DNA from: Verrucomicrobia bacterium UBA3841
Lineage (GTDB): Bacteria > Verrucomicrobiota > Kiritimatiellia > RFP12 > UBA1067
Reading direction: 5' to 3'
Assembly (NCBI GenBank): GCA_002392765.1
Contig: DGHT01000036.1
Location: forward strand, 2,870 to 66,869
DNA: 64,000 nucleotides
Shown: in pieces, positions 1,667 through 51,605 of the stretch
How positions within the stretch are numbered: position 1 is the stretch's first letter
How the letters are laid out: each line of letters begins with the position of its first letter
Position numbers and translations under genes: made by a program
Notes under the pieces: generated by a model
Database searches by the model: none
The model's input: the letters and a program-made list of their open reading frames with translations, nothing else
What the model was told of the DNA's origin: nothing

Positions 1667-4179
1667 TGGGAAAGAAACTTTTGATAGTGGAATCTCCGGC
1701 GAAAGCCAAGACGATAGGAAAATATCTGGGAGGGGAATTCATCGTCGCAAGTTCGGTGGGCCACGTCCGCGACCTTCCCGAGGACGACGGGGCGATCAAA
1801 ATCACCGAAACCGCCCCGGGAAAATGGAAGTTCGTCCCCAAATACGTCATATCCAAAAACAAGACGAAGGTCGTTTCGCATCTCAAGGACGCCGTGTCTA
1901 AATCCGACGAGATATTCCTTGCGAGCGACCCCGATCGCGAGGGAGAGGCGATCGCCTGGCATCTGCGCGAGGTTCTGAAAAACGCGGCGGCCGGCAAGCC
2001 GTTCCACCGCGTCACCTACAACGAAATCACCAAACCCGCCGTTCTGAAGGCGGTGTCGAATCCCGGCGAGATCGACATGCCGCGCGTCGATGCGCAGCAG
2101 GCGCGCAGGATTCTCGACAGGCTTGTCGGCTACAAGGTTTCGCCTCTTCTCTGGAAATCGATTCCGTGCAAGAACAGCCGCACGCTGAGCGCGGGAAGGG
2201 TTCAGTCCGTGGCCTTGCGCCTTCTCGTGGAGCGCCAGCGCGAAATCGACGCTTTCGTGCCGCAGGTCTACTACTTGCTCGGCGTGGAGGCGATGAAGCG
2301 CGGAGATTCGCAGACGTTCGAAGCGAAGCTCGCGAGAATCGGCGGCGAGAAGCCGGATATCGGCGACAAGAAAACGGCGGATGGAATCATCGCCGATCTC
2401 GAGGGGGCGGAGCTGTCGGTTTCGGGACTGAAAAGCCAGCAGAAAACGCGGCACGCGCTTCCGCCTTTCACGACATCTACTCTACAGCAGGCCGCCTCGA
2501 GCGTTCTTGGTTTTTCGCCGGGCAAGACCATGAAAGCGGCGCAGGCTCTCTACGAGCAGGGCCTTATAACTTACATGAGAACGGACTCCGTGTTCATTTC
2601 CGACATCGCCCGTTCCGCCGCGAAGGATTACATCGTGTCCGCCTTCGGTCCCGGATTCTACCCGGAAAAGCCGAATATGTACAAATCCAAGGAGACGGCC
2701 CAGGGTGCGCACGAGGCGATCAGACCCACAAACGTTTCCGCCGCACCCGGCTCGGTGCAGCTGGAGGCTGCCGAGGCCAAACTTTACGATCTTATATGGA
2801 GAAGGTTCGTGTCGAGCCAGATGTCCGACGCGAAGCTGACGGTCAGGACGGTCTGCCTCGAACCGCGCAAGACCGGCATCTCCAGATCGTACGAGTTCAC
2901 GGCCAGCGCCACCGATGTCGATTTCGAAGGCTTCCTCCGGGTCATGAAGATATCGCTTTCCAAAAAGAAGGGCGACGACGAAGACGACCAGGATAGCGAC
3001 GAGGTCAAGCGCATACCTCCTCTCTCGGTCGGCGAGACGCTCGACGCCGTCCGCTGGATATCGTCCGAGAAGACGACCAAAGGCCCGTCCTACTACTCGG
3101 AGGCGTCGCTTGTCAAGGCCCTCGAAGAAAACGGCGTGGGGCGTCCTTCTACGTACGCGGCGACGATCGAGACGCTCAAGACGCGCGAATACGCGCGCAA
3201 CGACAAGCGCAAGCTCGTTCCGGAGGAGAGGGGAATCCTTGTCAGCGACTGGCTCGTGAAAAAGCTCGACAATCTCTTCAACGTTGGATATACCGCCGAA
3301 ATGGAGGCCGAACTCGACAAGGTCGAGGAAAAGGGGCTGGGGATGGACGACATGCTCAGTTCGTTCTACGGAACGTTTCTGAAGGAGCTGGCGTCATGTT
3401 CCGAGCCGATGCCCGACAAGAGCAAGTTCGAGACCGCGTTCGCGCTGCTGGAATCCGTCCGCGAGTGGAAGGAACCGGTCAAGGCCGGGAAGAGAGTATA
3501 CGACGACAGGGCTTTCGTCGAAAGCGTCCGCAAGCAGTTCTACGCCGGCAAGTCGCTTTCCGTCCGCCAGCTCGATTCGCTCGTGCGGATGGTCGGCGCC
3601 TACCGCGGCCAGATACCGGACGCCGGGGAGAAGCTTAAGGCGGCCGGCATGGAACTTCCCGCCGCTCGCGAGAACAAGACCGTCGATACGGAACTCGCGT
3701 CGTTTTGCGTATCCGTCGCCAAAAGGATACCGTCGCTTTCCTCCAATGCTTTCGTGAAGAGCATAATCGGACAGTTCGACCGCGGGAGGCAGCTGAGCGA
3801 GCGCCAGCTGGCCGTTTTGGCGAGGACGGTTTCCGAGAACGGATCGGGTCTTCCCGATTACGGCGAGATAAGCGCGCGCCTCGCACCGCTTCTTCCCGAC
3901 GGAGCCACGGCGCAGCGTCCGGCGGACCCGTCGCTTGCCGCGCTTCTCGTGTCGATGGCCGGCGAGATATCGAAGTGGCGCGAGCCGGTAAAGCGCGGCA
4001 AGCGCACATACGATGACGCGGCGTTCGTCAAGTCGGTCGCCGACCAGTTCGCATCCCGCCACAATCTCAGCGAAAGGCAGGTTTCCGCGCTCAAGAGGGT
4101 GGTGTCCGCGTACAAGGATCAGATTTCGAACTACTCCGAAAGGATGAAGGGGGTTGAAGGAGACAAGTCCCGAGTTTGA
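1666..4179 (+). CDS. topA: DNA topoisomerase I (type IA) with three C-terminal ~45-aa repeats
   Basis: Toprim N-terminus [22 protein letters not shown]...VGHVRDLP. Active-site LITYMRTDS. ATG overlaps the clpC stop (TAATG). C-terminal repeats of form W(K/R)EPVKxGKRxYDDxAFVxSVxxQF...LSxRQ (Toprim_C_rpt-like). Confidence 0.9.
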   Translation: MGKKLLIVESPAKAKTIGKYLGGEFIVASSVGHVRDLPEDDGAIKITETAPGKWKFVPKYVISKNKTKVVSHLKDAVSKSDEIFLASDPDREGEAIAWHLREVLKNAAAGKPFHRVTYNEITKPAVLKAVSNPGEIDMPRVDAQQARRILDRLVGYKVSPLLWKSIPCKNSRTLSAGRVQSVALRLLVERQREIDAFVPQVYYLLGVEAMKRGDSQTFEAKLARIGGEKPDIGDKKTADGIIADLEGAELSVSGLKSQQKTRHALPPFTTSTLQQAASSVLGFSPGKTMKAAQALYEQGLITYMRTDSVFISDIARSAAKDYIVSAFGPGFYPEKPNMYKSKETAQGAHEAIRPTNVSAAPGSVQLEAAEAKLYDLIWRRFVSSQMSDAKLTVRTVCLEPRKTGISRSYEFTASATDVDFEGFLRVMKISLSKKKGDDEDDQDSDEVKRIPPLSVGETLDAVRWISSEKTTKGPSYYSEASLVKALEENGVGRPSTYAATIETLKTREYARNDKRKLVPEERGILVSDWLVKKLDNLFNVGYTAEMEAELDKVEEKGLGMDDMLSSFYGTFLKELASCSEPMPDKSKFETAFALLESVREWKEPVKAGKRVYDDRAFVESVRKQFYAGKSLSVRQLDSLVRMVGAYRGQIPDAGEKLKAAGMELPAARENKTVDTELASFCVSVAKRIPSLSSNAFVKSIIGQFDRGRQLSERQLAVLARTVSENGSGLPDYGEISARLAPLLPDGATAQRPADPSLAALLVSMAGEISKWREPVKRGKRTYDDAAFVKSVADQFASRHNLSERQVSALKRVVSAYKDQISNYSERMKGVEGDKSRV

Positions 4180-5098
4180 CGGCGACGGGCTTGTCGCCGG
4201 ATTCAGGCGGCATCTGGAGTCGGAGTCAGGCGTATCGCCGAACACGAGTTCGGCGTACCTCGGCGATCTTGCCCAGTTTGCCGCGTTTCTCCGCGATGCC
4301 GGCAGGTCCGCCGGCGACTGGAAAGGAGTTACCGATTCCGATGCGCGCGCCTTCGCGGCGAAACTTGCGAAGGGGGGGGCGGGCGCGACGACGCTCCGCA
4401 GGAAAATCTCGTCCGTGCGCGCGTTTTTCAGATATCTTCTGCGTGAAAACGAAGTCTCCCGCAATCCTTTTTCTTCGCTCAGGGGGCCGCGCGTGCGCAA
4501 AACGCTCCCGAAAACGCTGTCCGTTGCGGATGTCGGCAGACTGCTCGACAGGCCCGCAGCGGATTTCCGCGACGGAATGCTCGGCGAATATCCTTCTTAC
4601 AGGGACAAAGCCGTGTTCGAATTCCTTTATTCGACCGGGTGCCGCGTCGGCGAGATAGCGGCGGTCAAGTGGGGCGACATCGATTTCGCGAGAGGCGGAT
4701 TGATCGTCCGCGGCAAGGGCGGGAAGGACCGTCTGGTGATTCTCGGATCGAAGGCGATCGAGGCGCTCCACTCGCTGCGCAGAGCCGTTTCCGCGAGACG
4801 GGCGAATCTCGCAGGTGACGATTCTCCGGTGTTCCTCAGCGACAGGTTCGGAAAGATATATCCCAGGTTCGTCGAAAGGCGGATGAAAAGGTATCTTGCA
4901 GAAGCGGGTCTTTCCTCTTCGCTTACTCCGCACAAGCTCAGGCACAGTTTCGCCACGCATCTTCTCGACGCGGGCGCCGACCTCAGGAGCGTGCAGGAGA
5001 TGCTCGGCCACGCATCTCTTTCGACCACGCAGATATACACGCACGTGTCTGTCGAAAGGCTTAAAAACGAATACGCAAAGGCGCATCCGCGCGCTTGA
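4154..5098 (+). CDS. xerC: Tyrosine site-specific recombinase XerC/XerD family
   Basis: C-terminal catalytic box HKLRHSFATHLLDAGADLRSVQEMLGHASLSTTQIYTHV, with the RHR triad and catalytic Tyr context. Follows topA as in many genomes. The ORF start is a TTG at 4154, so the true start is uncertain. Confidence 0.8.
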   Translation: MKETSPEFDGDGLVAGFRRHLESESGVSPNTSSAYLGDLAQFAAFLRDAGRSAGDWKGVTDSDARAFAAKLAKGGAGATTLRRKISSVRAFFRYLLRENEVSRNPFSSLRGPRVRKTLPKTLSVADVGRLLDRPAADFRDGMLGEYPSYRDKAVFEFLYSTGCRVGEIAAVKWGDIDFARGGLIVRGKGGKDRLVILGSKAIEALHSLRRAVSARRANLAGDDSPVFLSDRFGKIYPRFVERRMKRYLAEAGLSSSLTPHKLRHSFATHLLDAGADLRSVQEMLGHASLSTTQIYTHVSVERLKNEYAKAHPRA

Positions 5099-5111
5099 GG
5101 ACGGTGAAATC

Positions 5112-5603
5112 ATGAACGGCGACAGCGGCAAGTCTTGCGGATTTAAGGTGAAATCGCTCCCTTGGAGCATGCTTTTGGCGTCCTTGCCCGCATTGTGCGC
5201 GGCGGTTGCAGTGCTTGCCGTGTTTCCGCGCGCAGAGGGCGTCTTCGCGACGGACGTCAGGCTGCGGAGCCGTACGCACGCGACCTGCTCGTTCGTAGCG
5301 CTCGATCCGGCCGCGGAGAAAAAGGCGATGGAAGACGTCCGTTCCACGCTCTCGCGCGATCTCAGCGGCGTCAGAGAGATGAGCGCGGATCTTTCCGTGT
5401 CGACGATACCGGATCCGCCGTACGAGGCGATAACAGACATTTCCGACAGATCCCGTCCTCTGCCGCCGCATCCTTTTTCGCTTTCCCCGGTTCCGTTCGC
5501 GCCGTCGCTGTCCGCTCCCGACGCGGAGCAGATCGAGCCGGACGAACGCGGGGAGCCGCCCGCATTCTCGCGGGAAGAACTTTTGCAGAATACAATAAAA
5601 TGA
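5112..5603 (+). CDS. Hypothetical small membrane-anchored proline-rich protein
   Basis: ATG at 5112 in frame with the 4896-5603 ORF. Hydrophobic segment MLLASLPALCAAVAVLAVFP followed by a Pro/Ser-rich tail. GC3-rich codons. No recognisable family. Confidence 0.35.
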   Translation: MNGDSGKSCGFKVKSLPWSMLLASLPALCAAVAVLAVFPRAEGVFATDVRLRSRTHATCSFVALDPAAEKKAMEDVRSTLSRDLSGVREMSADLSVSTIPDPPYEAITDISDRSRPLPPHPFSLSPVPFAPSLSAPDAEQIEPDERGEPPAFSREELLQNTIK

Positions 5604-5615
5604 AAGGGGCAAACC

Positions 5616-6227
5616 ATGACCGACAAACAGGCGATGGACGCGTTCAGGGACACCGGAGCGCTTCTCGAAGGGCATTTCGAGCTTAGAAGCAAGCTTCACT
5701 CGAACAGGTATTTCCAGTGCGCCAACGTGCTGATGTATCCGCGCGTGGCTGAGAAGCTCTGCCGCGAGGCGGTGTCCAGGGCCGTCAAGAGCGGCAAGCT
5801 CGGCAAGCGGATAGACGGCGTGATTTCGCCGGCCGTGGGCGGAATACTCGTAGGACACGAAGTCGCGCGGTCGCTCGGCGTCAAGTGCATATTCGCCGAG
5901 AAAGTCCAGGGAGAGGGGGTCGACGCCACCGGCAAGCCGAACACGGTGCTTGCGATGCGCAGGTTCTCGATCAAGAAAGGGGAGCGGTATGTCGTCGCCG
6001 AGGATGTCGTCACGAAAGGCGGCAGAGTGCAGGAGACGATCGATCTCGTCAAGGCGGCCGGCGGCAGGGTCGCGGGCGTGATTCTGCTTGTCGACCGTTC
6101 CGGCGGAAAGGTCAAGTTCGGGCGCATCCCCATGTTTGCGCTAGTCAAGATGACTCCCGAGACGTGGACCAAAGAGGAATGCCCCATGTGCAAGGCGGGT
6201 TCAAAGCCGGTCCATCCCGGTTCGTGA
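5616..6227 (+). CDS. pyrE: Phosphoribosyltransferase, most likely orotate phosphoribosyltransferase
   Basis: 203 aa. GHFELRSKLHSNRYFQC opening. PRPP-binding motif VVAEDVVTKGGRVQETIDLVKAAGGRVAGV. ATG 5616 preceded by an AAAGGGG Shine-Dalgarno-like stretch. Confidence 0.6.
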   Translation: MTDKQAMDAFRDTGALLEGHFELRSKLHSNRYFQCANVLMYPRVAEKLCREAVSRAVKSGKLGKRIDGVISPAVGGILVGHEVARSLGVKCIFAEKVQGEGVDATGKPNTVLAMRRFSIKKGERYVVAEDVVTKGGRVQETIDLVKAAGGRVAGVILLVDRSGGKVKFGRIPMFALVKMTPETWTKEECPMCKAGSKPVHPGS

Positions 6228-23015: not shown

Positions 23016-23090
23016 TGGCAGCCCCAAGGAGAGTCGAACTCCTCTACCAAGCATGAAAAGCTCGTGTCCTAGCCGATAGACGATGGGGCC
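23016..23090 (-). tRNA. tRNA-Glu (anticodon UUC)
   Basis: Reverse complement folds as a cloverleaf: acceptor GGCCCCA/TGGGGCT (G1-U72), D-stem GTCT/GGAC, anticodon stem CGAGC/GCTTG, loop TTTTCAT (UUC), T-arm AGGAG-TTCGACT-CTCCT, discriminator G, encoded CCA. Confidence 0.85.
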
Positions 23091-28679: not shown

Positions 28680-28752
28680 GCCTCCGCCCGGCGGCGATAT
28701 CAAGGAGATGCGGCATCCTGCCGCGTCCCTTTGCAAAACCTGCTTGTTTGTC

Positions 28753-28825
28753 TCACGCAAAGTACGCAAAGTTCGCAAAGCAACCATAGAAAAGAAACTT
28801 TGCGCGCTTCGCGAACTTGGCGTGA
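28753..28825. repeat. Palindromic element B copy 1: three tandem 9-mers (tcacgcaaag tacgcaaag ttcgcaaag), 16-bp spacer, three inverted 9-mers
   Basis: Direct read. Near-identical copy at 51340-51412; related copies at 30105-30172 and 43688-43761. Confidence 0.7.
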
Positions 28826-28944
28826 AATATATTCGGAGGGCAAATACCTCCAATGACAACAATCCCACAATTCCTCAGTTCCATCTTCCCTCAATTAAAG
28901 TCGAAAAAGTGTCATAGGACACTATGCTTTCACCGTCCTTCTTT

Positions 28945-30104: not shown

Positions 30105-30172
30105 TCACGCAAAGTCCGCAAAGTTCGCAAAGTTTCTTTCAGGACTTCGCGGACTTGGCGAACATTGCGTGA
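30105..30172. repeat. Palindromic element B copy 2, between the regulator and GH29
   Basis: tcacgcaaagtccgcaaagttcgcaaag ... acttcgcggacttggcgaacattgcgtga. Confidence 0.65.
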
Positions 30173-31625: not shown

Positions 31626-31652
31626 CGTGTAGAACGTGTAGATCGTGTAGAG
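31626..31652. repeat. Left terminal inverted repeat: (cgtgtagNN)x3
   Basis: cgtgtagaacgtgtagatcgtgtagag; its reverse complement matches 33077-33103 at 25 of 27 positions. Confidence 0.8.
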
Positions 31653-31763
31653 CCTTTCTACATGTTGCTTTCGCTTCTGGGAGTTTCGGAGTTTGGGAGA
31701 TTCAAAAGACTCCTATACTCCAAAACTCCCAGCAACGAAAGTGAGAAAATGATGTGCGGTGTT

Positions 31764-32873
31764 CTACAGCCGCTTGAGCCACAGGCCGAAGAATCTGTCG
31801 TAGACGACGTATCCCGCGTCCGACCGGTAAAGAAGGTCGCGTTCCGTCAACTTGGCTGCTGCGGATCGGACTGTGGAAGCGGCCGGGAGCTTGTTGCGCC
31901 TGATAAAATCTCCGCCGGATATGGACTTTGCAACACCCTGTCTGCCGACCGCCTTCAGGATGGATTGTTCGGCGGGAGTCTGGCTTCGCAGAAGGTCGAA
32001 GTAGAACGATTCCGATTCCGCAACGAGTTCATCCACGGTATCATCGACCTGTTGGACGGAATCGAGTCCGCTACCGTGCGTCCAGACGCGGTTGAGGATG
32101 CTTTGGATGTACCACGTTATTCCCTCGAAGCGTTCGTAGAGATGGCGAAACGCCCCTTCCGAGAAGGTGCGTCCTTCGCGGCGGAAGAACCCCTCGGCGA
32201 ATTGCCCGTACTTTCCGGCGTCGATGGTGCCGAGAGCCATGAGCTGCGTGCTTTGGTAGAAAGGACCCTTGGGCGAGACGAACATGGCGTCCATCATGTG
32301 TTTCCTGGAGCCTGCGAATATGAAATGCGCGTTCGGAACGAATTGGATGTAGCTTCTGAGAAGCGCCTCCGCCCCCTTTTCCGGAAACTCGCGAACCTGC
32401 TGGAACTCGTCGATGGCAATCACGACCTTGCGCTTGCGCGACGCGATGTAGTCGAAAGTGTCCTTAAGCGTGGCCTTGGCCTGCGACGGCGCGAGGTCGA
32501 AGGAAAAGGAGAAGGATCCGTCGTTGTTCGGCGTAAGCGTCGGACGGCAGCTCTTGAAGAACGAAAGAATCTTTCTCCCGACGCGCTCCGCCGGGGAGTC
32601 GAGCCTGTCGAGGACTGTGGCGGCGAACGTCTGCACGAACGAAGTGAGGTCTTCGATAGCGAAGATGTCGAGATAGACCGTCGCATGGGTCTTCTCGAGT
32701 GTCCGGAAGGCGTTGTGGACGAGACCGGTCTTGCCGTAGCGGCGCGGCGCGACGAGCGTCACGTCCCTTCCGTTGGAGATCGCGGAGACGAGCTTTTGCG
32801 TCTCTGCGGCGCGGTCGCAGAAGTACTCAGGCCCCGCGTAGCCGCGTATCAGAAAAGGGTTGTCGAGTTTCAT
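31764..32873 (-). CDS. AAA+ ATPase of the archaeal-ATPase / DUF234 type
   Basis: Walker A APRRYGKTGL. Walker B-like VVIAIDEFQ. C-terminal DUF234-like winged-helix region. ATG (MKLDNPF) at 32873, preceded on the minus strand by TTTGATATAAT 7 nt upstream. Confidence 0.7.
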   Translation of the reverse strand: MKLDNPFLIRGYAGPEYFCDRAAETQKLVSAISNGRDVTLVAPRRYGKTGLVHNAFRTLEKTHATVYLDIFAIEDLTSFVQTFAATVLDRLDSPAERVGRKILSFFKSCRPTLTPNNDGSFSFSFDLAPSQAKATLKDTFDYIASRKRKVVIAIDEFQQVREFPEKGAEALLRSYIQFVPNAHFIFAGSRKHMMDAMFVSPKGPFYQSTQLMALGTIDAGKYGQFAEGFFRREGRTFSEGAFRHLYERFEGITWYIQSILNRVWTHGSGLDSVQQVDDTVDELVAESESFYFDLLRSQTPAEQSILKAVGRQGVAKSISGGDFIRRNKLPAASTVRSAAAKLTERDLLYRSDAGYVVYDRFFGLWLKRL

Positions 32874-32880
32874 GCGCAAT

Positions 32881-32891
32881 ATTATATCAAA
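32881..32891 (-). promoter_or_regulatory. Extended -10 TTGATATAAT (minus strand) for the ATPase, leaderless spacing; a 19-bp perfect palindrome gcgacgaaattttcgtcgc lies at 32918-32936 in the -35 region
   Basis: Direct read of the reverse complement. Confidence 0.45.
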
Positions 32892-33076
32892 AATTCGCAC
32901 GTTGCGACGAAATTTTCGCGACGAAATTTTCGTCGCAGAAAAGTGGTGCGTTCAAAATCGTCTCATCTTTCGTGTATTTCGCGTATTTCGTGGTTCCATG
33001 AACCGCCTACAATTGCCGCGAAAATGCAAGTAGAAGTGCCGCGAAAGTTAAAGTAAGGAGTGCGGCATGATGACGC

Positions 33077-33103
33077 AACTACACGATCTACACGTTCTAC
33101 ACG
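33077..33103. repeat. Right terminal inverted repeat: (NNctacacg)x3
   Basis: aactacacgatctacacgttctacacg. Confidence 0.8.
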
Positions 33104-37838: not shown

Positions 37839-39631
37839 GAAACTTGTGCGGATCAATACTCGCGGCGATGTTTGCGCTTTTGGCCGCAGCCAGACCTGTG
37901 CCGCGTCCGGCGATGCTGAATCCGGCAAAATTCGACGCAGACGACGTCCAGGCGCTCAGGGACTTCGGCGAATTGCGCAAGGCGTCCGCGGCTCGCGAAT
38001 ATTTCGTCTCGCCGTCCGGCGACGATGCGGCGGACGGCTCGGCCTCGCATCCGTGGCGCACAATCAGCCATGCTGCGGCGGTCGCAGAATCGGGCGATAC
38101 AGTGACAATCCACGCAGGCGTTTACCGCGAGTGGGTGAAGCCCGCAAATGCCGGTTCCGAAGGTGCGCCGATCACCTACCGTGCCGCAAAGGGCGAGCGC
38201 GTCGTCGTGACGGGCGCCGACGAAGTGCGCGGCTGGACGAAGCGTCCCGACGGACTATGGGAGGCGCACGTTTCCTATGATTCCTTCGGCGGCGTCAATC
38301 CCTTCACGGACTTCATCGAGGGCTCCTGGTTTCTGCCGAAGGACTTGAACCACTTCCGCACGCGTCTCATCCAGTGCGGAAAGCCGCTGAACCTCGTCGG
38401 CGAGGAGATTCTTGCGCCGCCGGACCACGGCGTTCCGCATCTTGAGCGAGGGACTGCCGCGCTGATCCCAGGCCGCGTTTCGGGGATGATCGTCGCTGCT
38501 TTCGAGCACGATCCAAACGTGGAAGTGCCGGAACTTGTCGTGCGGCCCTGCTGCTTCTACCCGACCACGACGCGCCGCGACTATATCGCGCTCAGGGGAA
38601 TCGCGTTCCGCGACGCCGCGCCGACATGGGCGCATCCGCGCGGCGAACAGCCCGGTGTCGTCGGCACTAACTGGAGCCGCGGATGGACTATCGAGGATTG
38701 CGAAATCTCTGGCTCGTGCTGCGCGGGGCTTACGCTCGGCAAGTGCGCCAACGATTTCGACTCGTTCTGGAACGATCCGAAGCAGAGCTTTTCGCTTTGG
38801 GGCAAGCGCCTTTCGGAGCGCGACCTTTCGGAAATAGGCCACCACACGGTCCGTCGCTGCCGCATCTCCGATTGCGGACAGGCCGGCATCTGCGGCGGTT
38901 TCGGCGCGGTCTGGTCGACCATCGAGGAATGCGACATCTCCAATTGCTTCAAGGGGAAAAAGTTCTTCGGATACGAGATGGCCGGAATCAAGATACACGC
39001 GGCGGTCGGCATGACAATCCGCCGCAACCGCATCCACGACAACGGATGCTTCGCCGTATGGCTCGACTGGATGGCGCAGGGGACGCGGCTTTCCGGAAAC
39101 GTTTTCTGGAACAACGACCAGCACGACCTCTACCTCGAAGTCGTCCACGGGCCGAACCTCCTCGAAGGAAACGATTTCCTCTCCGAGAAGGCCATCCACT
39201 TCAAGGGCTCCAACAACATCGCACTTGTCGGCAACCGCATCTTCGGCTCGCTCGCGTGCGATGACGACGCGAGTCTGGGCTATCGGAAGACGCCTGTCTT
39301 TCATCCGCACTCGACGCGTATCAAGGAACTATACGCCGACCCAACGCCCGCGAACCTCGCATTCATCAACAACATTCTTCCGGAAGAACCGCATTTCTCC
39401 GATCTCGCGAGCAATCCGTGCAGGTGTGAAGACAACTTCCTCGTCCCGCGCGAATACTGGCTGATCGATGCGGCAACAGGCGATGTCGGCATCAGTCCGC
39501 CGCCATCCTTGCCGCGTCCGGACTTCAAGCCCGTCGGCGCCGGACGCCTCGGCGCCGGCCTTGTCTCGGGCGAGGACTTTCCACAGCCGTCGCCTGAATA
39601 TTCAACGCCGAAGAGAGAAATGAAGCTATGA
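37835..39631 (+). CDS. Right-handed parallel beta-helix (pectate-lyase fold) enzyme
   Basis: N-terminal YFVSPSGDDAADGSASHPWRTISHAAAVAESGDTVTIHAGVY cap. PbH1-like repeats (ISGSCCAGLTL, ISDCGQAGICGG, IRRNRIHDNGCF, GNVFWNN). Confidence 0.65.
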   Translation: MRNLCGSILAAMFALLAAARPVPRPAMLNPAKFDADDVQALRDFGELRKASAAREYFVSPSGDDAADGSASHPWRTISHAAAVAESGDTVTIHAGVYREWVKPANAGSEGAPITYRAAKGERVVVTGADEVRGWTKRPDGLWEAHVSYDSFGGVNPFTDFIEGSWFLPKDLNHFRTRLIQCGKPLNLVGEEILAPPDHGVPHLERGTAALIPGRVSGMIVAAFEHDPNVEVPELVVRPCCFYPTTTRRDYIALRGIAFRDAAPTWAHPRGEQPGVVGTNWSRGWTIEDCEISGSCCAGLTLGKCANDFDSFWNDPKQSFSLWGKRLSERDLSEIGHHTVRRCRISDCGQAGICGGFGAVWSTIEECDISNCFKGKKFFGYEMAGIKIHAAVGMTIRRNRIHDNGCFAVWLDWMAQGTRLSGNVFWNNDQHDLYLEVVHGPNLLEGNDFLSEKAIHFKGSNNIALVGNRIFGSLACDDDASLGYRKTPVFHPHSTRIKELYADPTPANLAFINNILPEEPHFSDLASNPCRCEDNFLVPREYWLIDAATGDVGISPPPSLPRPDFKPVGAGRLGAGLVSGEDFPQPSPEYSTPKREMKL

Positions 39632-41139
39632 AATTGGTATTGGCAACACTGGCAACACTGGCAACATTCGCCGCGACAGCGGCGGAGACTTTCTGCAATC
39701 CCATGCCGATTCCGGACACGCCCGTCGGCATACTCTGCCGCGACAGCTTGAACGGCGACGCGATTCCCGAAATCGCATGGCAGAAAGATTGCTGGACAAA
39801 TGCCGCCTGCGGTTTCAAGGAGGTGCGCCAGTTCCGCGAGCTTGCCGATCCGGTCGTTCTCGCCGAGGGCGACACATGGTATCTCTATTCGAGCGCGGGG
39901 CTTATGTGGACCAGCGACGACTTCGGCGGCACATGGCGGCATGTGGGCGTGCAGGCCGAAGCCGACTATGCGCCCGCAGTCGCCAAGTTCCGCGGCAAGT
40001 ACTACCTTTGCACATCAGGCGGACCGCTGAGCGTGGCCGATTCGCCCACGGGTCCGTTCCGGACGCTTGGCGCGTTCGACAAGAAGTCGTTCTCGTCCGA
40101 TTCGCAGATGCCGCACACCCTGGATCCGGCGCTTTTTGTCGATGGCGACCATCTCTATCTTTACTGGGGATGCTTCGCAAAGCCGAAGGCCGTCTGGTGC
40201 GTGGAGCTAGATCCGGAGAATCCGCTTCGCGCAAAGACGCCCGGCTCTGCCGTCTGCCTCGTCGAGTTCGACACGGAAAGATATCCGTGGCTCGACAGGC
40301 TGATCGAGGGCGCGTGGGTGTTCAAGCGCGACGGCACGTACTACCTCACGTATGCGACCTACGGAACGGAGGATTCGCGCTACTGCTGGTGCGCGATGAA
40401 AGGTTCGGGTCCGCTCGGGCCGTTCGTCCCGCAGAAGAACAATCCGTTCTTCATGACGGAGAAGGGTCTTGTCACAGGAACAGGCCACGGCTCTATCTGG
40501 TGCGATAAAAACGGAGACTGGTGGATCAACAGCTGCGTGTCTGTCGCAGCCTATCACGGCTTCGAGCGGCTGATCGCCCAGGATCGTCTCTTTTTCGAGC
40601 CGGACGGGGATATTGCCGTCGGCAAGGCTACCGAAACGCCGCAGTGGCTTCCGTCCAGCGGCAGGAAGGGCGGTACGGGATGGAAGGCGATACCGCTCAA
40701 GTCCGACAGAAGCGCGGCGACCGACATGAGCATCAAGACGTGGTCGACGGTCGAGAGTCTGCCGTCGAAGACCGTTTTTGAGTTCCCCGGAGAGAAGACG
40801 ATCCGAGCGTTCCGCGTCATCTGGCGCGACATCGGGCTCGACACGAATCGCGGCATCTTGCCGGGGCCGTATCGCTACCGCGTGGACTATCGCTCGAACG
40901 GTGTCTGGTGGACTTGGCTCGACGCCTCCAAGAACGACGTAGATCTCATGGTGGACTACCGCGAGGCGCCGGAGGCGGTTGCCGACGCGGTTCGACTTGT
41001 CGTCCTCTCCGCCCCGCCTGGCATCACTCCAGGGCTCGTGGAGTTTACGGTCTTTGGCTGTATGTTGGGGGAATTGGGAAGAGGTTCCCCATTCCCCGTT
41101 CCCCTTTCCCAGTTCCCCATAAAAGGAGACCAACCATGA
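39628..41139 (+). CDS. GH43 five-bladed beta-propeller glycosidase with a C-terminal beta-sandwich domain
   Basis: ADPVVLAEGDTWYLYSS (catalytic base Asp), LDPALFVDGDHLYLYWG, IEGAWVFKRDGTYYLTYA (acid Glu). The last ~25 aa (GELGRGSPFPVPLSQFP) are encoded by a gggaa/ccccgttcccc repeat. Confidence 0.75.
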   Translation: MKLVLATLATLATFAATAAETFCNPMPIPDTPVGILCRDSLNGDAIPEIAWQKDCWTNAACGFKEVRQFRELADPVVLAEGDTWYLYSSAGLMWTSDDFGGTWRHVGVQAEADYAPAVAKFRGKYYLCTSGGPLSVADSPTGPFRTLGAFDKKSFSSDSQMPHTLDPALFVDGDHLYLYWGCFAKPKAVWCVELDPENPLRAKTPGSAVCLVEFDTERYPWLDRLIEGAWVFKRDGTYYLTYATYGTEDSRYCWCAMKGSGPLGPFVPQKNNPFFMTEKGLVTGTGHGSIWCDKNGDWWINSCVSVAAYHGFERLIAQDRLFFEPDGDIAVGKATETPQWLPSSGRKGGTGWKAIPLKSDRSAATDMSIKTWSTVESLPSKTVFEFPGEKTIRAFRVIWRDIGLDTNRGILPGPYRYRVDYRSNGVWWTWLDASKNDVDLMVDYREAPEAVADAVRLVVLSAPPGITPGLVEFTVFGCMLGELGRGSPFPVPLSQFPIKGDQP

Positions 41140-44100
41140 ACAAAGCAATCGCATCTCTCGTCTGCATCGGCGCCGTGTGCACTGCGCTGGCGGATTGGAC
41201 GCTCGAGCGTAGCGCGGCTAAGGACGGGCTTTTGATGACGGACGGCATCAAGCCCGGGTCGTATTATGTGAGGCTTGAAGGATTTTCGGGTGACGACGCG
41301 ACCACCCGCGCCAAGGTGTGGCACGAGGGCCGGCGTATCGAGTTCGTGCGCGGCGGGCCGTGGATGGACGACAACGGCAAAGAGCTGATGACGCTCGAGT
41401 CGCGTCCGGTGGAAGTCAAACCGGGCGAGGCGTTCCGTGTCGACAAACAGACTCCGTGGACGCGGATCGTCCTCGCCGAAAAGCCGCTCGACTACGCGCC
41501 GCAGCGCGTATTCACGAACATGGCGCTCGACCCGGAAGTCGCTTTCGCCGCGGAGGCAGATTTCGGCGTGTCGAACGTGGCCGTGACGCTCAACAGCTAT
41601 CTTGGTTCGGCGGTCAAAGGACGGCTCCGAGTGAAGGTGACGGACTACTACGGCAAGACGCTCGCAGAAACGGATCGCAGGGACGTCGAGCTGGGAAGGA
41701 CGCTTAAACTCGATGTCCCCTACGAGGACAACGGCTCGGGGCAGTTTCGCGCGGCGGTCGGCTTCACGGACGGATCCGGACGCAAGGTCTATCGCGTCTT
41801 CGCGCGGCTTGCGGACGCAAAGTCGCCGCACCGCGAGCTTCTGAGGATGAACGAGGGATGGACGCGCGTCTCGGGCAAGAAGGCCGTGATGCCCGCCGAG
41901 GTAAAGGACGGCGCGGAGAAGTTCAGCGGCACTTTCGCGGTTCCGGCCTCGTTCGCCGGAAAGCGCATATTCTTCAAGGCGCTCAGGATTTCGTGCGTTG
42001 CGAAGCTTTACGTCAACGGCGCGGAGGCGGCGACGTTCGGCGAGGACGGCAATTTCGCGGGCGATATGGAGGCGGACGTGACGCAATTCGTCAAACCGGG
42101 CGAGACAAACGAATTCGTCATCGACGCGAAGCGCGCGGACGAAGAGAAGTATCCCAGCGGAATGCCGGGACGCCTCTCGGCGGTTTCCGAACTTGCGCTG
42201 GAGGCGCGCGGCGAAAACGCAATCGGCCGTGTTTCGGTCGTGACGTCGTTCCGCGAAAAGACGATTCGCGTCAAGGCGGAGCATCCGGCTGGCTTTACCG
42301 TGCGAAACTCCGTATGGCGCGGAGACGAGAAGCTTCTTTCCTTCGCGGACGAATCCAAGTGGGAGAATCCGCCGCTTTGGGGCCCCATCAACTTTCCTCT
42401 CCTCAAGCTCGTCACTGAACTTGTCGATGCCAAGGGGAATGTCGTGGACGAGAAGCTGACGCGTTTCGCGTTCCGCGAGTTCTGGCCGGACGGCATGGCG
42501 CTCATGTGGAACGGCCACCGCGTGAAGGGTGAAGCGCGGGCGTTCATCAGCACGTGGGGGTGGTGGGACTTCGACAGGCGCTGCAAGCGCCAGTTCAACT
42601 GCGACATCCTATGGGAAGGCAAGCTGCGAGGCATCAAGTTTCTGCGGCACGTCTACAACTCGTCGGAGTTTCTTGATTTCTGCGACGAGGCGGGGATTCC
42701 CTGCGCCGTAGGTTTCGCGACGATCGCGAATCCATCTCCCGAAAAGAGCGCGAACAAGGAGTTCTGGGCGTGGAAGGAGTACAACGACCGCTGCCTCGCC
42801 GCGACCCTGCGCAACCATCCGTCTGTCATGACGTGGTATATCACGAACGAATACTACGCCGAGAGCGAAGACCGCAATCTGGGGCCAGTCCAGTCCGCGC
42901 TGAGGAACATCCGCGCGTTCGATCCGTTCCACTTCGCCGAAACGGGCTGCGACCTCGATCTGCGCGGCGAGAACAACATAATCTCGACGCACTATCCCGT
43001 CGAGCTGCTCTCCTTGCGCAAGGCCGGGTGCTACATGCCGTATTCGTTCTACTGGCGCGATATCGAAAAGCCTTTCGTGAAAGGGCAGGCGATTCCCTCC
43101 GGGCAGATCCTGAAGGTCTGCAACATCTACGCCGATTCGCCGGCCAAGTGGGGCGAGAAGCCGATTTTCATCAACGAGACGTGCTGGGACTTCTTCTTCA
43201 ATCCGCCGTTCGGATGGACGCGCCTTGCGGGCGACGAGGTTTTCAACGATCCAAGATACTGCGACAAGTGGCACATCGAGACGGAAGTCGAGGCGGTGCG
43301 CGGGCATCGCGATGCAGACGTGACGCTCTGGACGCCGTGGCGCTGGTACCACATCGACCCCGAGTGGCGCGTTTCGCCGGAGATTGACGTCGTGAATATC
43401 CAGCGCTATTCGCGCTTTTACGAGGGGACGGAGGTCAAGTACGACGTCAACGTGTTCTACGACAGGTGGCGTCCCGCGACTGTGACGTGGTTCTGGCGGC
43501 TTGAAGACTCGGAAGGCAAGACGGTTGTCTCGTCCAAGGATGAGCGGATAGACGTTGACACGTCCGCGTTTATCAGAAAGCAGATTTCCTTCAAGGCGCC
43601 AAAGCCTGGTGAATACACGCTTGTCTTCGGGTTGAAGGGAGTCTGCGAGAAGACGCTTGACATTGTGTCTAGTTCGCGGTTTATGTCTCACGCAAAGCTC
43701 GCAAAGGGCGCAAAGTCGTCTGGCGAAGATGAACTTCGCGGGCTTGGCGAACTTGGCGTGAGAAAATATGCCAATGTATTCGGAGTGCGCGACGTCCTTT
43801 CCGAGCGGCTGCTTGACCGCGCGGCGGCAGGCGAGACCATCGTCATCCTCGCGCGGGACGACTACCCGGAGTGGCTGCCGGAGATACCGTCCGTATCCGA
43901 CCAGTCCGCAGCGATCCTGCGCACGTACAGAACGCGCCATCCGATACTGAAAGGGTTCAAGAAAGACGACCTCAAGTATTTCTATCCGAAATCGATCGCA
44001 TGCGACAGGGCGTTTGCGAAGCCTTCGGGCGGCAACGCGAAGACTGTTCTCGAATTCGGCGGCGCGTCGGGGCTAGTCTATTCCGCGCTTGTCGAAGTGC

Positions 44101-45695
44101 CTTACGGGAAAGGATGCTTCCTCTATTCGCGCCTCGTGCTTGAACCGGATATAAACCCAGTCGCCGCGAAACTTTTGGAGAACATGGCCGCCTACAAGAG
44201 CGCGAAAGAGCCTGGCAGGGCGTTGTTCCTGACGGCGCGTGGGGACACGCGCCCTCCCGTAGCGGAGGCGCTTGTGAAAAACTGCGGCGTGGAACTGGAT
44301 TTCGGCGGCATTGCAGACATCGGCAAATACAGCGCCATATTCGTGGACGGCAAGGCGTCGCTTTCCAAGGACGACCTCAAGGCCCTTGCGGCGTCCGGAA
44401 AGAATGTCATCGTGTTCGGAGCCTGCGAGGCGGCCGGAATGAAGACGCGTTCAGTCGGCGCGAAGTCGTGGAGCGGACGCGCGGTGCGCATATCGAGCGA
44501 CCCGATCCTCGACGGACTCACCAATCAAGATATGATGTGGCGTAAGAAGTTCTCCGACGAGAAGACCGCTTTCGCGGAACTGGCAGCTGATGAGTTCGTC
44601 GCCGAGAAGGGCGTGCTGACATATCCGGCATATATCGTCCGGCGCGGCAACATCGTGTTCACGACACTCGACCCGTCCGTCAACGCGAAGGACGCTTCGA
44701 AGCAGGCATCGCGTCTCTGGGCGACGATTCTCGGGAACGCCGGCGTTAGGGTGAAGGGCTTTTCGCGTCCGTTCATCCCGAAAAACCTCTTTTACGATCA
44801 AGTGGATCTGTCGCCGTATCTAGATCGTACTCTCGCGGACGAAAAGGGGAGTGACGGCAAGGGTTCGTGGAACGACCAGGGACCCGAGCAGAGTCTGCCT
44901 CAGATTTTTGCGGGCGAGCGCGGCTGGGTAGGTTCGGTTCCGTATGATGTGAAGATGGCGGGTCCCTGCGCGTTCACGCTGAAGAGCGAATTCTGCAAGG
45001 CGGGCAAGGACAATGTAACGGTTGAAATCGGACGCAAGTTCGACACTCTCAACTGGCTCTCGACCGGCGCATGGGTCGGGAAGGGCAAGCGCGACTATAC
45101 CGTGCGCGTCAATTATGCGGACGGAACCTCGCGGCAGATTGAAGTGTCCGGCGGCGTGAACTTGTTCGACTGGGTTTCTGAAATGCCTGATTTCTCCGGC
45201 GAGACGGATACAGTCACCGCGCTGCGAACCTTGACTGCCAAGTCGGGGTTGTTCGCGAAGATGAACGTCTATTCGACAAGCTGGGTCAATCCGGATCCGG
45301 AGAAGATCGTCAATACGGTAGAATTCCTGCGCGGCGAGAAGAACTGCGCCGTAGTTGGCGTCTTCGGCCTGACGCTGGGTGCGCGCGAGACGGCGTATTC
45401 CGCCCTGTCTCAGGAAGAACGCGGCAGACTCCACGAGCGGTTCGTCGCCGAGGCTATGGCTGCGAAGGAGGCGGGCGATAGAGTCAAGGCGATTGCTCTT
45501 TACGAAAAGGCCATTCGCGCAAAGCCCGTCGATCTCGGCATCTACCGCTCGATCGCCGCGCTCTACGAGGAGGCGGGGGATGCGGAAGCGGCGCTTGCGA
45601 CATGCCGGCGGTCGCTCGAAGCGGACTACAACCAGCCAGACCTTTGGGACGAGGAAAAGCGTCTTGAGGCGAAAGTGAAAGGAGCAGCGAAATGA
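41136..45695 (+). CDS. 1519-aa multidomain secreted protein: GH2-like (clan GH-A) N-terminal half plus a ~650-aa C-terminal extension with a terminal TPR-like segment
   Basis: Shine-Dalgarno AAAAGGAGACC. Signal peptide MNKAIASLVCIGAVCTALA. Sugar-binding jellyroll block KLYVNGAEAATFGEDGNFAGDMEADVTQFV. RNHPSVMTWYITNEYY (GH2 acid/base NE block). KPIFINETCW (nucleophile-like). Palindromic element B copy 3 is read through in frame at 43688-43761. Confidence 0.55.
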   Translation: MNKAIASLVCIGAVCTALADWTLERSAAKDGLLMTDGIKPGSYYVRLEGFSGDDATTRAKVWHEGRRIEFVRGGPWMDDNGKELMTLESRPVEVKPGEAFRVDKQTPWTRIVLAEKPLDYAPQRVFTNMALDPEVAFAAEADFGVSNVAVTLNSYLGSAVKGRLRVKVTDYYGKTLAETDRRDVELGRTLKLDVPYEDNGSGQFRAAVGFTDGSGRKVYRVFARLADAKSPHRELLRMNEGWTRVSGKKAVMPAEVKDGAEKFSGTFAVPASFAGKRIFFKALRISCVAKLYVNGAEAATFGEDGNFAGDMEADVTQFVKPGETNEFVIDAKRADEEKYPSGMPGRLSAVSELALEARGENAIGRVSVVTSFREKTIRVKAEHPAGFTVRNSVWRGDEKLLSFADESKWENPPLWGPINFPLLKLVTELVDAKGNVVDEKLTRFAFREFWPDGMALMWNGHRVKGEARAFISTWGWWDFDRRCKRQFNCDILWEGKLRGIKFLRHVYNSSEFLDFCDEAGIPCAVGFATIANPSPEKSANKEFWAWKEYNDRCLAATLRNHPSVMTWYITNEYYAESEDRNLGPVQSALRNIRAFDPFHFAETGCDLDLRGENNIISTHYPVELLSLRKAGCYMPYSFYWRDIEKPFVKGQAIPSGQILKVCNIYADSPAKWGEKPIFINETCWDFFFNPPFGWTRLAGDEVFNDPRYCDKWHIETEVEAVRGHRDADVTLWTPWRWYHIDPEWRVSPEIDVVNIQRYSRFYEGTEVKYDVNVFYDRWRPATVTWFWRLEDSEGKTVVSSKDERIDVDTSAFIRKQISFKAPKPGEYTLVFGLKGVCEKTLDIVSSSRFMSHAKLAKGAKSSGEDELRGLGELGVRKYANVFGVRDVLSERLLDRAAAGETIVILARDDYPEWLPEIPSVSDQSAAILRTYRTRHPILKGFKKDDLKYFYPKSIACDRAFAKPSGGNAKTVLEFGGASGLVYSALVEVPYGKGCFLYSRLVLEPDINPVAAKLLENMAAYKSAKEPGRALFLTARGDTRPPVAEALVKNCGVELDFGGIADIGKYSAIFVDGKASLSKDDLKALAASGKNVIVFGACEAAGMKTRSVGAKSWSGRAVRISSDPILDGLTNQDMMWRKKFSDEKTAFAELAADEFVAEKGVLTYPAYIVRRGNIVFTTLDPSVNAKDASKQASRLWATILGNAGVRVKGFSRPFIPKNLFYDQVDLSPYLDRTLADEKGSDGKGSWNDQGPEQSLPQIFAGERGWVGSVPYDVKMAGPCAFTLKSEFCKAGKDNVTVEIGRKFDTLNWLSTGAWVGKGKRDYTVRVNYADGTSRQIEVSGGVNLFDWVSEMPDFSGETDTVTALRTLTAKSGLFAKMNVYSTSWVNPDPEKIVNTVEFLRGEKNCAVVGVFGLTLGARETAYSALSQEERGRLHERFVAEAMAAKEAGDRVKAIALYEKAIRAKPVDLGIYRSIAALYEEAGDAEAALATCRRSLEADYNQPDLWDEEKRLEAKVKGAAK
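43688..43761. repeat. Palindromic element B copy 3, inside the giant ORF, in frame
   Basis: tcacgcaaagctcgcaaagggcgcaaag ... acttcgcgggcttggcgaacttggcgtga, translated as SHAKLAKGAKSSGEDELRGLGELGVR. Confidence 0.65.
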
Positions 45696-48367: not shown

Positions 48368-48568
48368 TACGAATGCAGCTGCCGCCGCAAGAGACGAGTT
48401 CCTCGTGGACTACGTACGCGTCTACGATCTGGTGCGATAGAAAGAAATATGGAAATGTGCAAATATCCAGTATCCATTATCCAATGATGGCGGGGCAAAT
48501 TGGATATTGGCTGTTGGCTGTTGGATATTTTCACATTTCTACATTAAACAAATGCGTTCACAATTGAC

Positions 48569-51209: not shown

Positions 51210-51285
51210 CTGGGAAAGCACCCCTGCCAGGGCATCCGCGTTGCGGACAACCTTCGGTTGGGGAATATGGTATCCTGCTGGCGAT
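51091..51285. repeat. GC-rich repeat element A copy 2 (a partial third copy lies at 51480-51550)
   Basis: Matches the reverse complement of 27437-27610. Interrupts the duplicated segment relative to 28614-28876. Confidence 0.6.
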
Positions 51286-51339
51286 ATCAAGGAGATGCGG
51301 CATCCTGCCGCGTCCCTTTGCAAAACCGGCTTGTTTGTC

Positions 51340-51412
51340 TCACGCAAAGTACGCAAAGTTCGCAAAGCAACCATAGAAAAGAAACTTTGCGCGCTTCGCG
51401 AACTTGGCGTGA
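51340..51412. repeat. Palindromic element B copy 4 (identical to copy 1; part of the segmental duplication)
   Basis: Identical arms and spacer to 28753-28825. Confidence 0.7.
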
Positions 51413-51605
51413 AATATATTCGGATGGCAAATACCTCTAATGACAACAATCCCACAATCTCATAATTTCATAAACGAGCGGGACGGTCGGCTTTCCCAGT
51501 TACCTCTTTCCTCGCAACGGGCGAGACGCCCGTTCCCCCAGTTATTCACGGAGCGGGACCTTACAACTCCTTGGAAGCCGCAATTTCACATTTTACACTT
51601 TATTT

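Follow-up and report, generated by a model that had tools for sequence, protein, structure and literature searches.

In a 64,000-nt stretch of DNA from Verrucomicrobia bacterium UBA3841 (GenBank contig DGHT01000036.1, positions 2,870 to 66,869; hereafter, the window), a gene for a secreted-looking multidomain protein of 1519 amino acids (41136..45695, plus strand, as judged from the translation of the open reading frame (ORF), with the stop codon at 45693-45695) carries a 78-nt imperfect palindrome in the middle of its coding sequence. Here we argue, with a probability of about 0.85, that this palindrome is a copy of a dispersed family of hairpin repeats that was recently inserted, in frame, in the linker of an ancestrally single protein of ~1500 residues and was tolerated there. 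In the lineage of the window, one family copy, together with a few flanking bases, would have replaced 42 nt of a short linker, namely the one that joined the last beta-sandwich of a GH2-like module to a C-terminal region composed of an alpha/beta part and tetratricopeptide repeat (TPR) helices. As the element is free of stop codons in the frame used and brings a gain of 66 nt, the ORF would stay open, and the linker would become longer by 22 hydrophilic residues, a change that would have been tolerated; selection would let pass those insertions that are multiples of three and fall in an open frame. The element itself is presumably a selfish or neutral mobile repeat, similar to the repetitive extragenic palindromic (REP) sequences or to the miniature transposable elements with inverted repeats (MITEs).

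The comparison with homologous proteins is central to this reading. In a search of 5.8 billion proteins, 25 homologues with 29-91% identity were found to cover 96-100% of the query as single chains of 1469-2264 aa; the 19 full-length homologues that were aligned have 1469-1552 aa, and four more distant ones have 1864-2264 aa. In an alignment of 22 sequences (A2; 21 homologues and the window protein), every homologue runs from the beta-sandwich (...CEKTLDI) via a linker of ~12-14 residues to the motif ...NVFG..D.LS..LL.RAAAGETIVIL. Only the window protein (P0032) has, at this linker, a block of 22 additional residues, which is the sole large lineage-specific insert in the core of the protein family. 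The block is equally confined to the window protein in a second alignment of 14 sequences (A3), which comprises 13 other members of the cluster, defined at 90% identity, that P0032 shares with P0001 (30 members from Kiritimatiellae metagenome-assembled genomes (MAGs), e.g. MBO6167192.1; the other full-length members among those listed, n = 10, have 1496-1502 aa). All 13 lack the block, including P0033, which is 95% identical to the window protein (dS about 0.16-0.21), and empty sites are, more generally, present in orthologues with 92-95% identity. Since the block is missing from all the aligned homologues and cluster members, the insert is derived and recent in the lineage of the window, and the single two-module protein of ~1500 residues represents the ancestral state. 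The initial annotation of this DNA had considered, as one option, a very old in-frame insertion tolerated as a linker; the in-frame position within a linker is borne out, whereas the proposed age is at odds with the absence of the insert from the whole cluster.

The other option in the initial annotation was that the element had fused two neighbouring genes, i.e. that an intergenic repeat, open in frame by chance, had linked a complete GH2-like gene to another gene downstream of it. Such a scenario would be in line with the usual intergenic location of the family and with its lack of stop codons in several frames; moreover, at the family copy that starts at position 30105 the ORF frame is also open through the element into the next gene. 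However, gene fusion is refuted by the homologues: all 25 of them, down to 29% identity, are continuous chains in which the linker is short, of conserved length and free of the repeat, the 21 aligned orthologues show neither a stop codon after the upstream module nor a start codon or a signal peptide before the downstream module, and the downstream part opens directly with a conserved domain. Uniformly single orthologues with such a linker were what the initial annotation had named as grounds for rejecting its proposal of two genes fused by the repeat.

Protein and codon alignments with the orthologous loci L001, L002 and L125 enable a reconstruction of the insertion. The segment that differs from all orthologues consists of 108 nt (43665..43772, plus strand; V844-A879) in place of 42 nt (AVAAKSASGGRRYP in the closest type), so that the net gain amounts to 66 nt, or 22 codons, a multiple of three; in L001, the linker at the empty site reads GCG GTC GCC GCA AAG TCC GCT TCT GGC GGA CGC CGC TAC CCC. 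These figures supersede the length of 74 bp, not a multiple of three, that was initially given for the element, the palindrome proper being 78 nt long. No direct repeat flanks any of the four family copies in the window, and the comparison with the empty site reveals a replacement of 42 nt by 108 nt, without a target-site duplication.

Since the window stems from a metagenome assembly, it has to be asked whether a repeat copy could have been mis-joined into the gene, short dispersed repeats being capable of causing mis-assemblies. The identical 1519-aa product is, however, encoded on 4 contigs, two of which, with names of different style, namely NODE_216 (122,964 bp, coverage 30.9) and scaffold_631 (80,851 bp), are identical to the window base by base over about 8 kb; in addition, both flanks of the element are collinear with the orthologues and the reading frame is kept. 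Because the same DNA is found in two other assemblies, an assembly or sequencing artefact is very unlikely.

The palindrome consists of two arms of 31 nt each, at 43686-43716 and 43733-43763, which are 81% complementary and are separated by a loop of 16 nt; the inverted repeat thus lies within 2 nt of the borders (43688-43761) reported initially. As delineated by the inverted-repeat search and by the alignment of copies, the left arm (43686..43716, plus strand) is made of TCTCA followed by three 9-nt units (CGCAAAG CT / CGCAAAG GG / CGCAAAG T), and the right arm (43733..43763, plus strand) reads CTTCGCG GG CTTGGCG AA CTTGGCG TGAGA; the loop between them (43717..43732, plus strand) is CGTCTGGCGAAGATGA, and loops vary among the family copies. 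The element is flanked by TCTAGTTCGCGGTTTATG on the left and by AAATAT on the right. The first base of the palindrome is the first base of codon 851, and its 26 codons are translated as SHAKLAKGAKSSGEDELRGLGELGVR, in agreement with the translation given in the initial annotation. The unit CGCAAAGNN and its complement cannot, on direct reading, contain a stop codon in any frame; stop codons could appear only in the loop or at the terminal GCG-TGA (one frame per strand). On the plus strand of the window copy, frame 1, the one that is used, is open, frame 2 continues up to the terminal TGA, and frame 3 is interrupted by a stop codon within the loop.

The palindrome belongs to a dispersed family of hairpin repeats. 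The two-unit motif CGCAAAGNNCGCAAAG, with up to 2 mismatches, is found 18 times in the window as compared to 1.08 expected matches, and none of 100 shuffled sequences reached this number. The matches cluster at four places, namely 28751-28826, 30105-30172, 43686-43763 and 51338-51413, and the four copies can be aligned, with conserved arms and different loops. Every copy begins with (T/C)CTCACGCAAAG, and the family ends are CTCACG...CGTGAG. The three other copies, identified by the motif scan on the plus strand, are all intergenic. The copy at 28751..28826 is located 27 nt upstream of a gene for a GntR/LacI-type regulator. The copy at 30105..30172 occupies the space between this regulator gene and a GH29 fucosidase gene, its right arm ending in ...TGCGTGAGA, and the copy at 51338..51413 is a duplicate of the first one. 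This duplication is a near-identical segment of ~185 nt (28695-28880 vs 51283-51470, 4 mismatches) that includes the hairpin copy and extends ~58 nt to the left and ~50 nt to the right of it, taking in the first 24 nt of the regulator gene (start at 28853); beyond the duplicated segment at 51283-51470 the sequence is unrelated.

The four copies share a left/right asymmetry: the left units are always CGCAAAG, whereas the right units follow the pattern CTT[C/G/T]GCG. Since this asymmetry is common to the family, the right arm should be considered to stem from the family and not from local copying of the left one. This point bears on the possibility that the palindrome arose in place, without transposition, i.e. 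that it grew from a CGCAAAG of the host gene by slippage or by fold-back and template switching, or else was copied in from another family member by homology-guided gene conversion. Indeed, the empty site of the closest type (L001/L002) already contains CGCAAAG and TCTGGCG, which match the last left unit and the loop in 17 of 20 alignment columns; furthermore, a target-site duplication is lacking, the codons next to the element have been exchanged, and the loops differ among the copies. The resemblance of the empty site, however, ranks only in the top 2.5-4.4% of the 42-nt windows of the same gene in L001/L002 and is not seen at the L125-type empty site, while the right arm, CTTCGCG..CTTGGCGAACTTGGCGTGAGA, is family-specific, non-complementary and nearly identical to that of the copy at 30105. 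A copy at another locus, L092, has a similar loop of 18 nt, with 12 of 18 positions identical to the window copy, so that the loop, too, is regarded as element-borne. On balance, a local origin appears unlikely, and insertion of a family copy is the preferred explanation. A claim of homology-guided insertion was dropped as too weak, given this rank and the lack of any resemblance in L125; homology may nevertheless have assisted the insertion. A metagenome scan for the loop CGCAAAGNNNTCTGGCGANNNNGAACTT yielded only an esterase locus orthologous to that of L092 (L127, L129) and one chance match, and no donor copy.

The RNA of the palindrome is predicted to fold with -38.6 kcal/mol, as compared to -23.4 +/- 2.8 kcal/mol for 200 dinucleotide shuffles (z = -5.5), none of which was as good. 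Such a strong hairpin invites the suggestion that the element has acquired a function, for instance that it regulates or splits the expression of the gene, by making ribosomes pause, by offering a site to an RNase or by letting translation start internally at GTG, which would yield a separate C-terminal protein, or that the longer linker is adaptive. The right arm does include an in-frame GTG (43758-43760), and the GTG at the same position within the repeat copy at 30105 (30163-30165, frame-matched and formed by the last bases of the copy) is the only plausible start of the gene for the GH29 alpha-L-fucosidase (MRIKLAFALLCVFSSVIATA...; PF01120, E = 5e-91), which possesses a signal peptide; this codon, thus, probably begins the fucosidase gene, and the repeat would there abut or supply a gene start. 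Within the 1519-aa protein, in contrast, the C-terminal part has no signal peptide of its own, the homologues are always one chain, the insert is limited to one lineage, and no promoter-like or terminator-like signal was detected: a promoter and terminator scan of 43300-44100 gave nothing above the expectation from shuffled sequences, and the test for intrinsic terminators was negative, with no T run after any of the four copies on either strand. In the search of the whole window against Rfam 15, the sole match at the gathering level was a tRNA (23019-23090), the best match at 43600-43850 having E >= 1. An acquired function of the hairpin or of the longer linker is, therefore, improbable, and tolerance of an in-frame insertion accounts better for the observations.

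At the orthologous locus of the related MAG L125, no empty site could be recovered for the copy at 30105, the fucosidases not being orthologous (27% identity). Upstream of the GH29 fucosidase gene of L125 (1900-2050), there are four direct repeats ACACTTTTCGTAG(C/T)GAATC, which have the appearance of operators and no relation to the hairpin family.

How could a protein accommodate such an insert? The listed ORF (40908..45695) holds an ATG at 41136, from which the 1519-aa product starts with a sequence that resembles a signal peptide (MNKAIASLVCIGAVCTALA). The N-terminal module, aa 1-843 (41136..43664, plus strand), which ends with an Ig/FnIII-like beta-sandwich domain, is GH2-like at the level of the family profile. 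Specifically, the profile of alignment A2 matches GH2 beta-galactosidases and glucuronidases with E from 1.6e-22 to 1e-12 over positions of about 228-628, the best match being the beta-galactosidase 7cwd (E = 1.6e-22, profile positions 279-627), and N571-E572 and E681 are invariant in the homologue alignment; they would be candidates for the N-E acid/base and the nucleophile Glu that characterise GH2 together with jelly-roll, Ig-like and TIM-barrel domains. The single host sequence stays below the Pfam gathering scores (PF00703, 20.3 vs 23 bits). The C-terminal region, aa 880-1519 (43773..45692, plus strand), is conserved in all homologues and comprises one or more alpha/beta domains, a beta-rich part and, as noticed initially, TPR helices at the very end, the TPR repeat matches being located at about aa 1438-1504 (45447-45647).

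In the AlphaFold2 model, which covers residues 720-1100 only (mean predicted local distance difference test score (pLDDT) of 82), a confident beta-sandwich extends to about residue 846 (pLDDT >90) and a confident alpha/beta domain begins at about residue 880; by blocks, pLDDT falls from 91-97 ahead of the insert to 47-62 across it and returns to 94 behind it, with values <50 for the insert itself. According to Foldseek, the beta-sandwich resembles accessory beta-sandwich domains of glycosidases. With a low-confidence segment flanked by confidently folded domains, the model predicts that the insert lengthens a natural inter-domain linker. In comparison with three orthologues, the ratio of nonsynonymous to synonymous substitution rates (dN/dS) amounts to 0.08-0.18 in the N-terminal part (residues 1-840) and to 0.14-0.17 in the C-terminal part (residues 885-1519), which indicates a history of purifying selection for both halves of the protein; the full-length 1519-aa protein is presumably made and active.

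Several observations weigh against the proposed scenario of a recent, tolerated insertion. The dN/dS values cover the entire time since divergence, not just the period after the insertion, and, therefore, they do not prove that the full-length protein is currently functional. The borders of the insertion are not clean: outside the palindrome, ~20 nt on its left side and 9 nt on its right side deviate from the orthologous sequences as well; as these flanking bases were replaced and there is no target-site duplication, the event was not a simple cut-and-paste. No transposase was found among the 9 window ORFs that were scanned against Pfam, and no parent element was identified. Finally, as the two other assemblies do not differ from the window in a single base, they might stem from one and the same strain or even from a shared set of reads.

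Two tandem arrays are located in the GH43 gene that precedes the host gene. The ATG of the host gene at 41136 overlaps the stop codon of this GH43 gene (ATGA), and directly before the overlap an array of five TTCCCCA units (41084-41120) encodes the C-terminal tail SPFPVPLSQFP of the GH43 protein. A perfect array of 9-nt units (TGGCAACAC x2.9; 39641-39666) encodes LATLATLAT in the signal peptide of the same GH43 gene (39628..41139).

Insertion of repeats of this kind in genes is not confined to the window. The same arms occur in other Kiritimatiellae MAGs, namely at the loci L011, L023, L054, L092, L097, L108 and L115, and in some of them the hairpin is part of a gene. In L023 (Kiritimatiellae MB2.95_2), an ORF at 2803-6129 encodes an MmeI-like type II restriction-modification enzyme of 1108 aa (E = 1.8e-145 to PDB 5hr4), and this ORF includes the CGCAAAG hairpin in frame, in a reading frame different from that in the window, so that the peptide is LTQSSQSPQS...TSRTSRE. 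Counting this hairpin and two other periodic palindromes, the ORF contains at least three such elements in frame (4402-4526, 4687-4748 and 4951-5022) as well as further repeat-like inserts, all of which correspond to gaps in the alignment with the MmeI structure 5hr4. One of the in-frame palindromes contains the unit TGGCAAC, which is related to the above array at 39641-39666. In L129 (632-2311, minus strand), and also in L092 and L127, a 559-aa esterase carries the hairpin in frame (QSHAKSAKVAKVSGDKELCELGELSAR) in the linker that connects its SGNH domain with its SASA domain. The listed homologues of this esterase all have two domains (PF13472 + PF03629), and the element is present in 4 of the 37 that were aligned; across these 37 homologues, length is hypervariable both in the linker and at a second site, near residue 480, and the peptides there resemble translations of other short repeats. 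Peptides of the FPVP/SPFPVP type, similar to the tail of the GH43 protein, are also found at this second variable site. Lastly, a TetR-like gene in a Kiritimatiellae MAG (L115, 6494-7153) ends inside a hairpin copy, which provides the last residues, SRKVREVR, and the stop codon. Judging by the MmeI-like, esterase and TetR-like cases, capture of these repeats in frame or at gene ends appears to be recurrent in the Kiritimatiellae.

The arm motif has a still wider distribution. When the exact sequence CACGCAAAGNNCGCAAAGNNCGCAAAG was searched for across phyla, with one genome per species, it was found in at least 120 loci as compared to about 0.02 expected by chance according to a rough calculation; these loci belong to Acidobacteriota, Verrucomicrobiota, Kiritimatiellae, Thermoguttaceae, Bacteroidota, Chloroflexota, Proteobacteria and others, and include megabase contigs and one isolate. 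In 25 of 133 occurrences (by a strict pattern), the motif is followed by at least two right-arm units within 90 nt, often ending in CTTTGCGTGAG, with unrelated loops, and in some genomes the unit is amplified to long tandem arrays (L071 Marinobacterium, L039, L052). With respect to the neighbouring ORFs, the 133 matches show no clear bias under a crude gene model that runs from stop to stop (40 co-directional, 19 convergent and 11 divergent). Matches that this model places inside ORFs are mostly artefacts because the units are free of stop codons, and the in-frame candidates in other phyla (L021, L058, L069 and L100) were rejected as spurious antisense or high-GC ORFs. No published description of the CGCAAAG arm motif was found, which is not a proof of absence; the literature matches to TCACGCAAAG and CTTTGCGTGA are primer coincidences, and a literature search for Kiritimatiell* and palindromes returned CRISPR mentions only.

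The window contains further periodic repeats. The intergenic palindromes at 31668-31741 and 48446-48545 have arms of tandem short units (GGAGTTTN; ATCCANT / TTGGCTG) and predicted folds of -39 and -34 kcal/mol, respectively; they belong to unit families other than CGCAAAG and have the same architecture. A perfect 25/25 inverted repeat, composed of three 9-nt units (CGTGTAGAN x3), is found at 31626-31650 and 33079-33103, i.e. with 1428 nt between the two copies, which bracket a lone minus-strand gene for an AAA+ ATPase (ORF 31764..32900; PF01637/AAA_14) in an otherwise plus-strand glycosidase cluster. This hairpin architecture with a gene as the "loop" (31626-33103) would be either a mobile cassette or the result of a gene insertion in a hairpin loop; the gene that it carries is an ATPase, not a transposase. 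No periodic inverted repeats flank AAA-ATPase genes in L001, L002 and L125, so that the arrangement is so far a single case.

In practical terms, the 1519-aa ORF should be kept as one gene in annotation, and SHAKLAK...GELGVR should be regarded as a repeat-derived segment that is neither a domain boundary nor a fusion point. More generally, this is a clean, datable case of a non-coding hairpin repeat that became part of a protein without breaking it. Taken with the insertions in the MmeI-like and esterase genes, it suggests that palindromes inserted in frame, so far known mostly from Rickettsia, occur repeatedly in a phylum that is free-living or gut-associated; a widely shared and apparently undescribed hairpin repeat with a 9-nt unit is another thing to which it points. 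As a tentative extension, it is conceivable that Kiritimatiellae carry a hitherto undescribed class of "periodic hairpin repeats", with about three tandem units of 7-9 nt per arm, variable loops, most frames free of stop codons and several unit families per genome (CGCAAAGNN, GGAGTTTN, ATCCANT, CGTGTAGAN and others), which land recurrently, in frame, in linkers and loops of enzymes, the CGCAAAG type with its CTCACG...CGTGAG ends being present in hairpins of more than 10 phyla. If this were true, protein remodelling of the kind attributed to the Rickettsia palindromic elements (RPE) would take place outside Rickettsia, and, to explain the sharing of CGCAAAG across phyla, one would have to assume either that an enzyme which mobilises the repeat has been widely transferred or that the 9-nt unit is recognised by a conserved factor of the hosts.

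Among the known systems, intrinsic terminators differ in that no U-tract follows the hairpin described here. The PARCEL elements share with it the dyad symmetry of a coding sequence and a patchy distribution over distant taxa (PMC2996958); in them, however, a protein motif of 25 residues is repeated in tandem and fills entire ORFs (PMC2996958), whereas here a single hairpin is found in an otherwise ordinary enzyme and most copies are non-coding. Bacterial MITEs, of which ERIC, BOX, Correia/NEMIS and the Anabaena MITEs are mentioned as found intragenically in a review (PMC10969869), are likewise small and non-autonomous, are built of inverted repeats and can become fused, in frame, with ORFs of the host. 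MITEs have a target-site duplication and terminal inverted repeats matching a parent insertion sequence (IS); neither was found for the copies analysed here, and the whole element is essentially one stem-loop. The REP/REPIN sequences, which are mobilised by RAYT (IS200/IS605-like Y1) transposases, are similar in being short imperfect palindromes that form hairpins and occur in many copies per genome, mostly extragenic and often just behind or between genes of the same direction; they do not code for anything themselves, and their insertion does not duplicate the target site. The differences are that the conserved 5' GTAG head of REPs (a palindrome of 20-40 nt) is not seen, the ends here being CTCACG...CGTGAG, that the arms are internally periodic, that no RAYT is present among the 9 window ORFs scanned against Pfam, and that the arm motif is common to many phyla, whereas REPs are usually species-specific.

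The closest analogue is the RPE, which, in the account given in the same review (PMC10969869, citing Ogata et al. 2000, Science, and 2002, Genome Res), are dispersed palindromes found in frame in unrelated genes at structurally tolerated sites. In both systems, a palindrome occurs between genes as well as inside unrelated coding genes, where it is in frame, leaves the host ORF open and adds a peptide, the positions of the inserts fit the protein fold, and several genes of one clade are affected (here, the window gene, the MmeI-like gene of L023 and the esterase gene of L129). Thus, the palindrome described here is dispersed and multi-copy, with four copies in 64 kb and additional ones in other Kiritimatiellae MAGs, and its in-frame insertion is missing from the orthologues, L023 and L129 providing further in-frame cases. 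The differences concern size, reading and host: RPE are about 100-150 bp long and encode a conserved peptide, whereas the element analysed here, with its 66-78 bp, has half that size, its arms are periodic, its loop varies, and its reading frame changes from gene to gene (HAK... in the window, TQS... in L023); and RPE reside in an obligate intracellular alphaproteobacterium, whereas the host here belongs to gut or rumen Kiritimatiellae. The kind of event is, hence, already known, and the insertion mechanism and the nature of the periodic hairpin repeats are the more interesting questions. With its 78 bp and its translation in different frames, the element would be an analogue, rather than a member, of the RPE, from which it is set apart by size and frame usage as described and not by the RPE consensus sequences.

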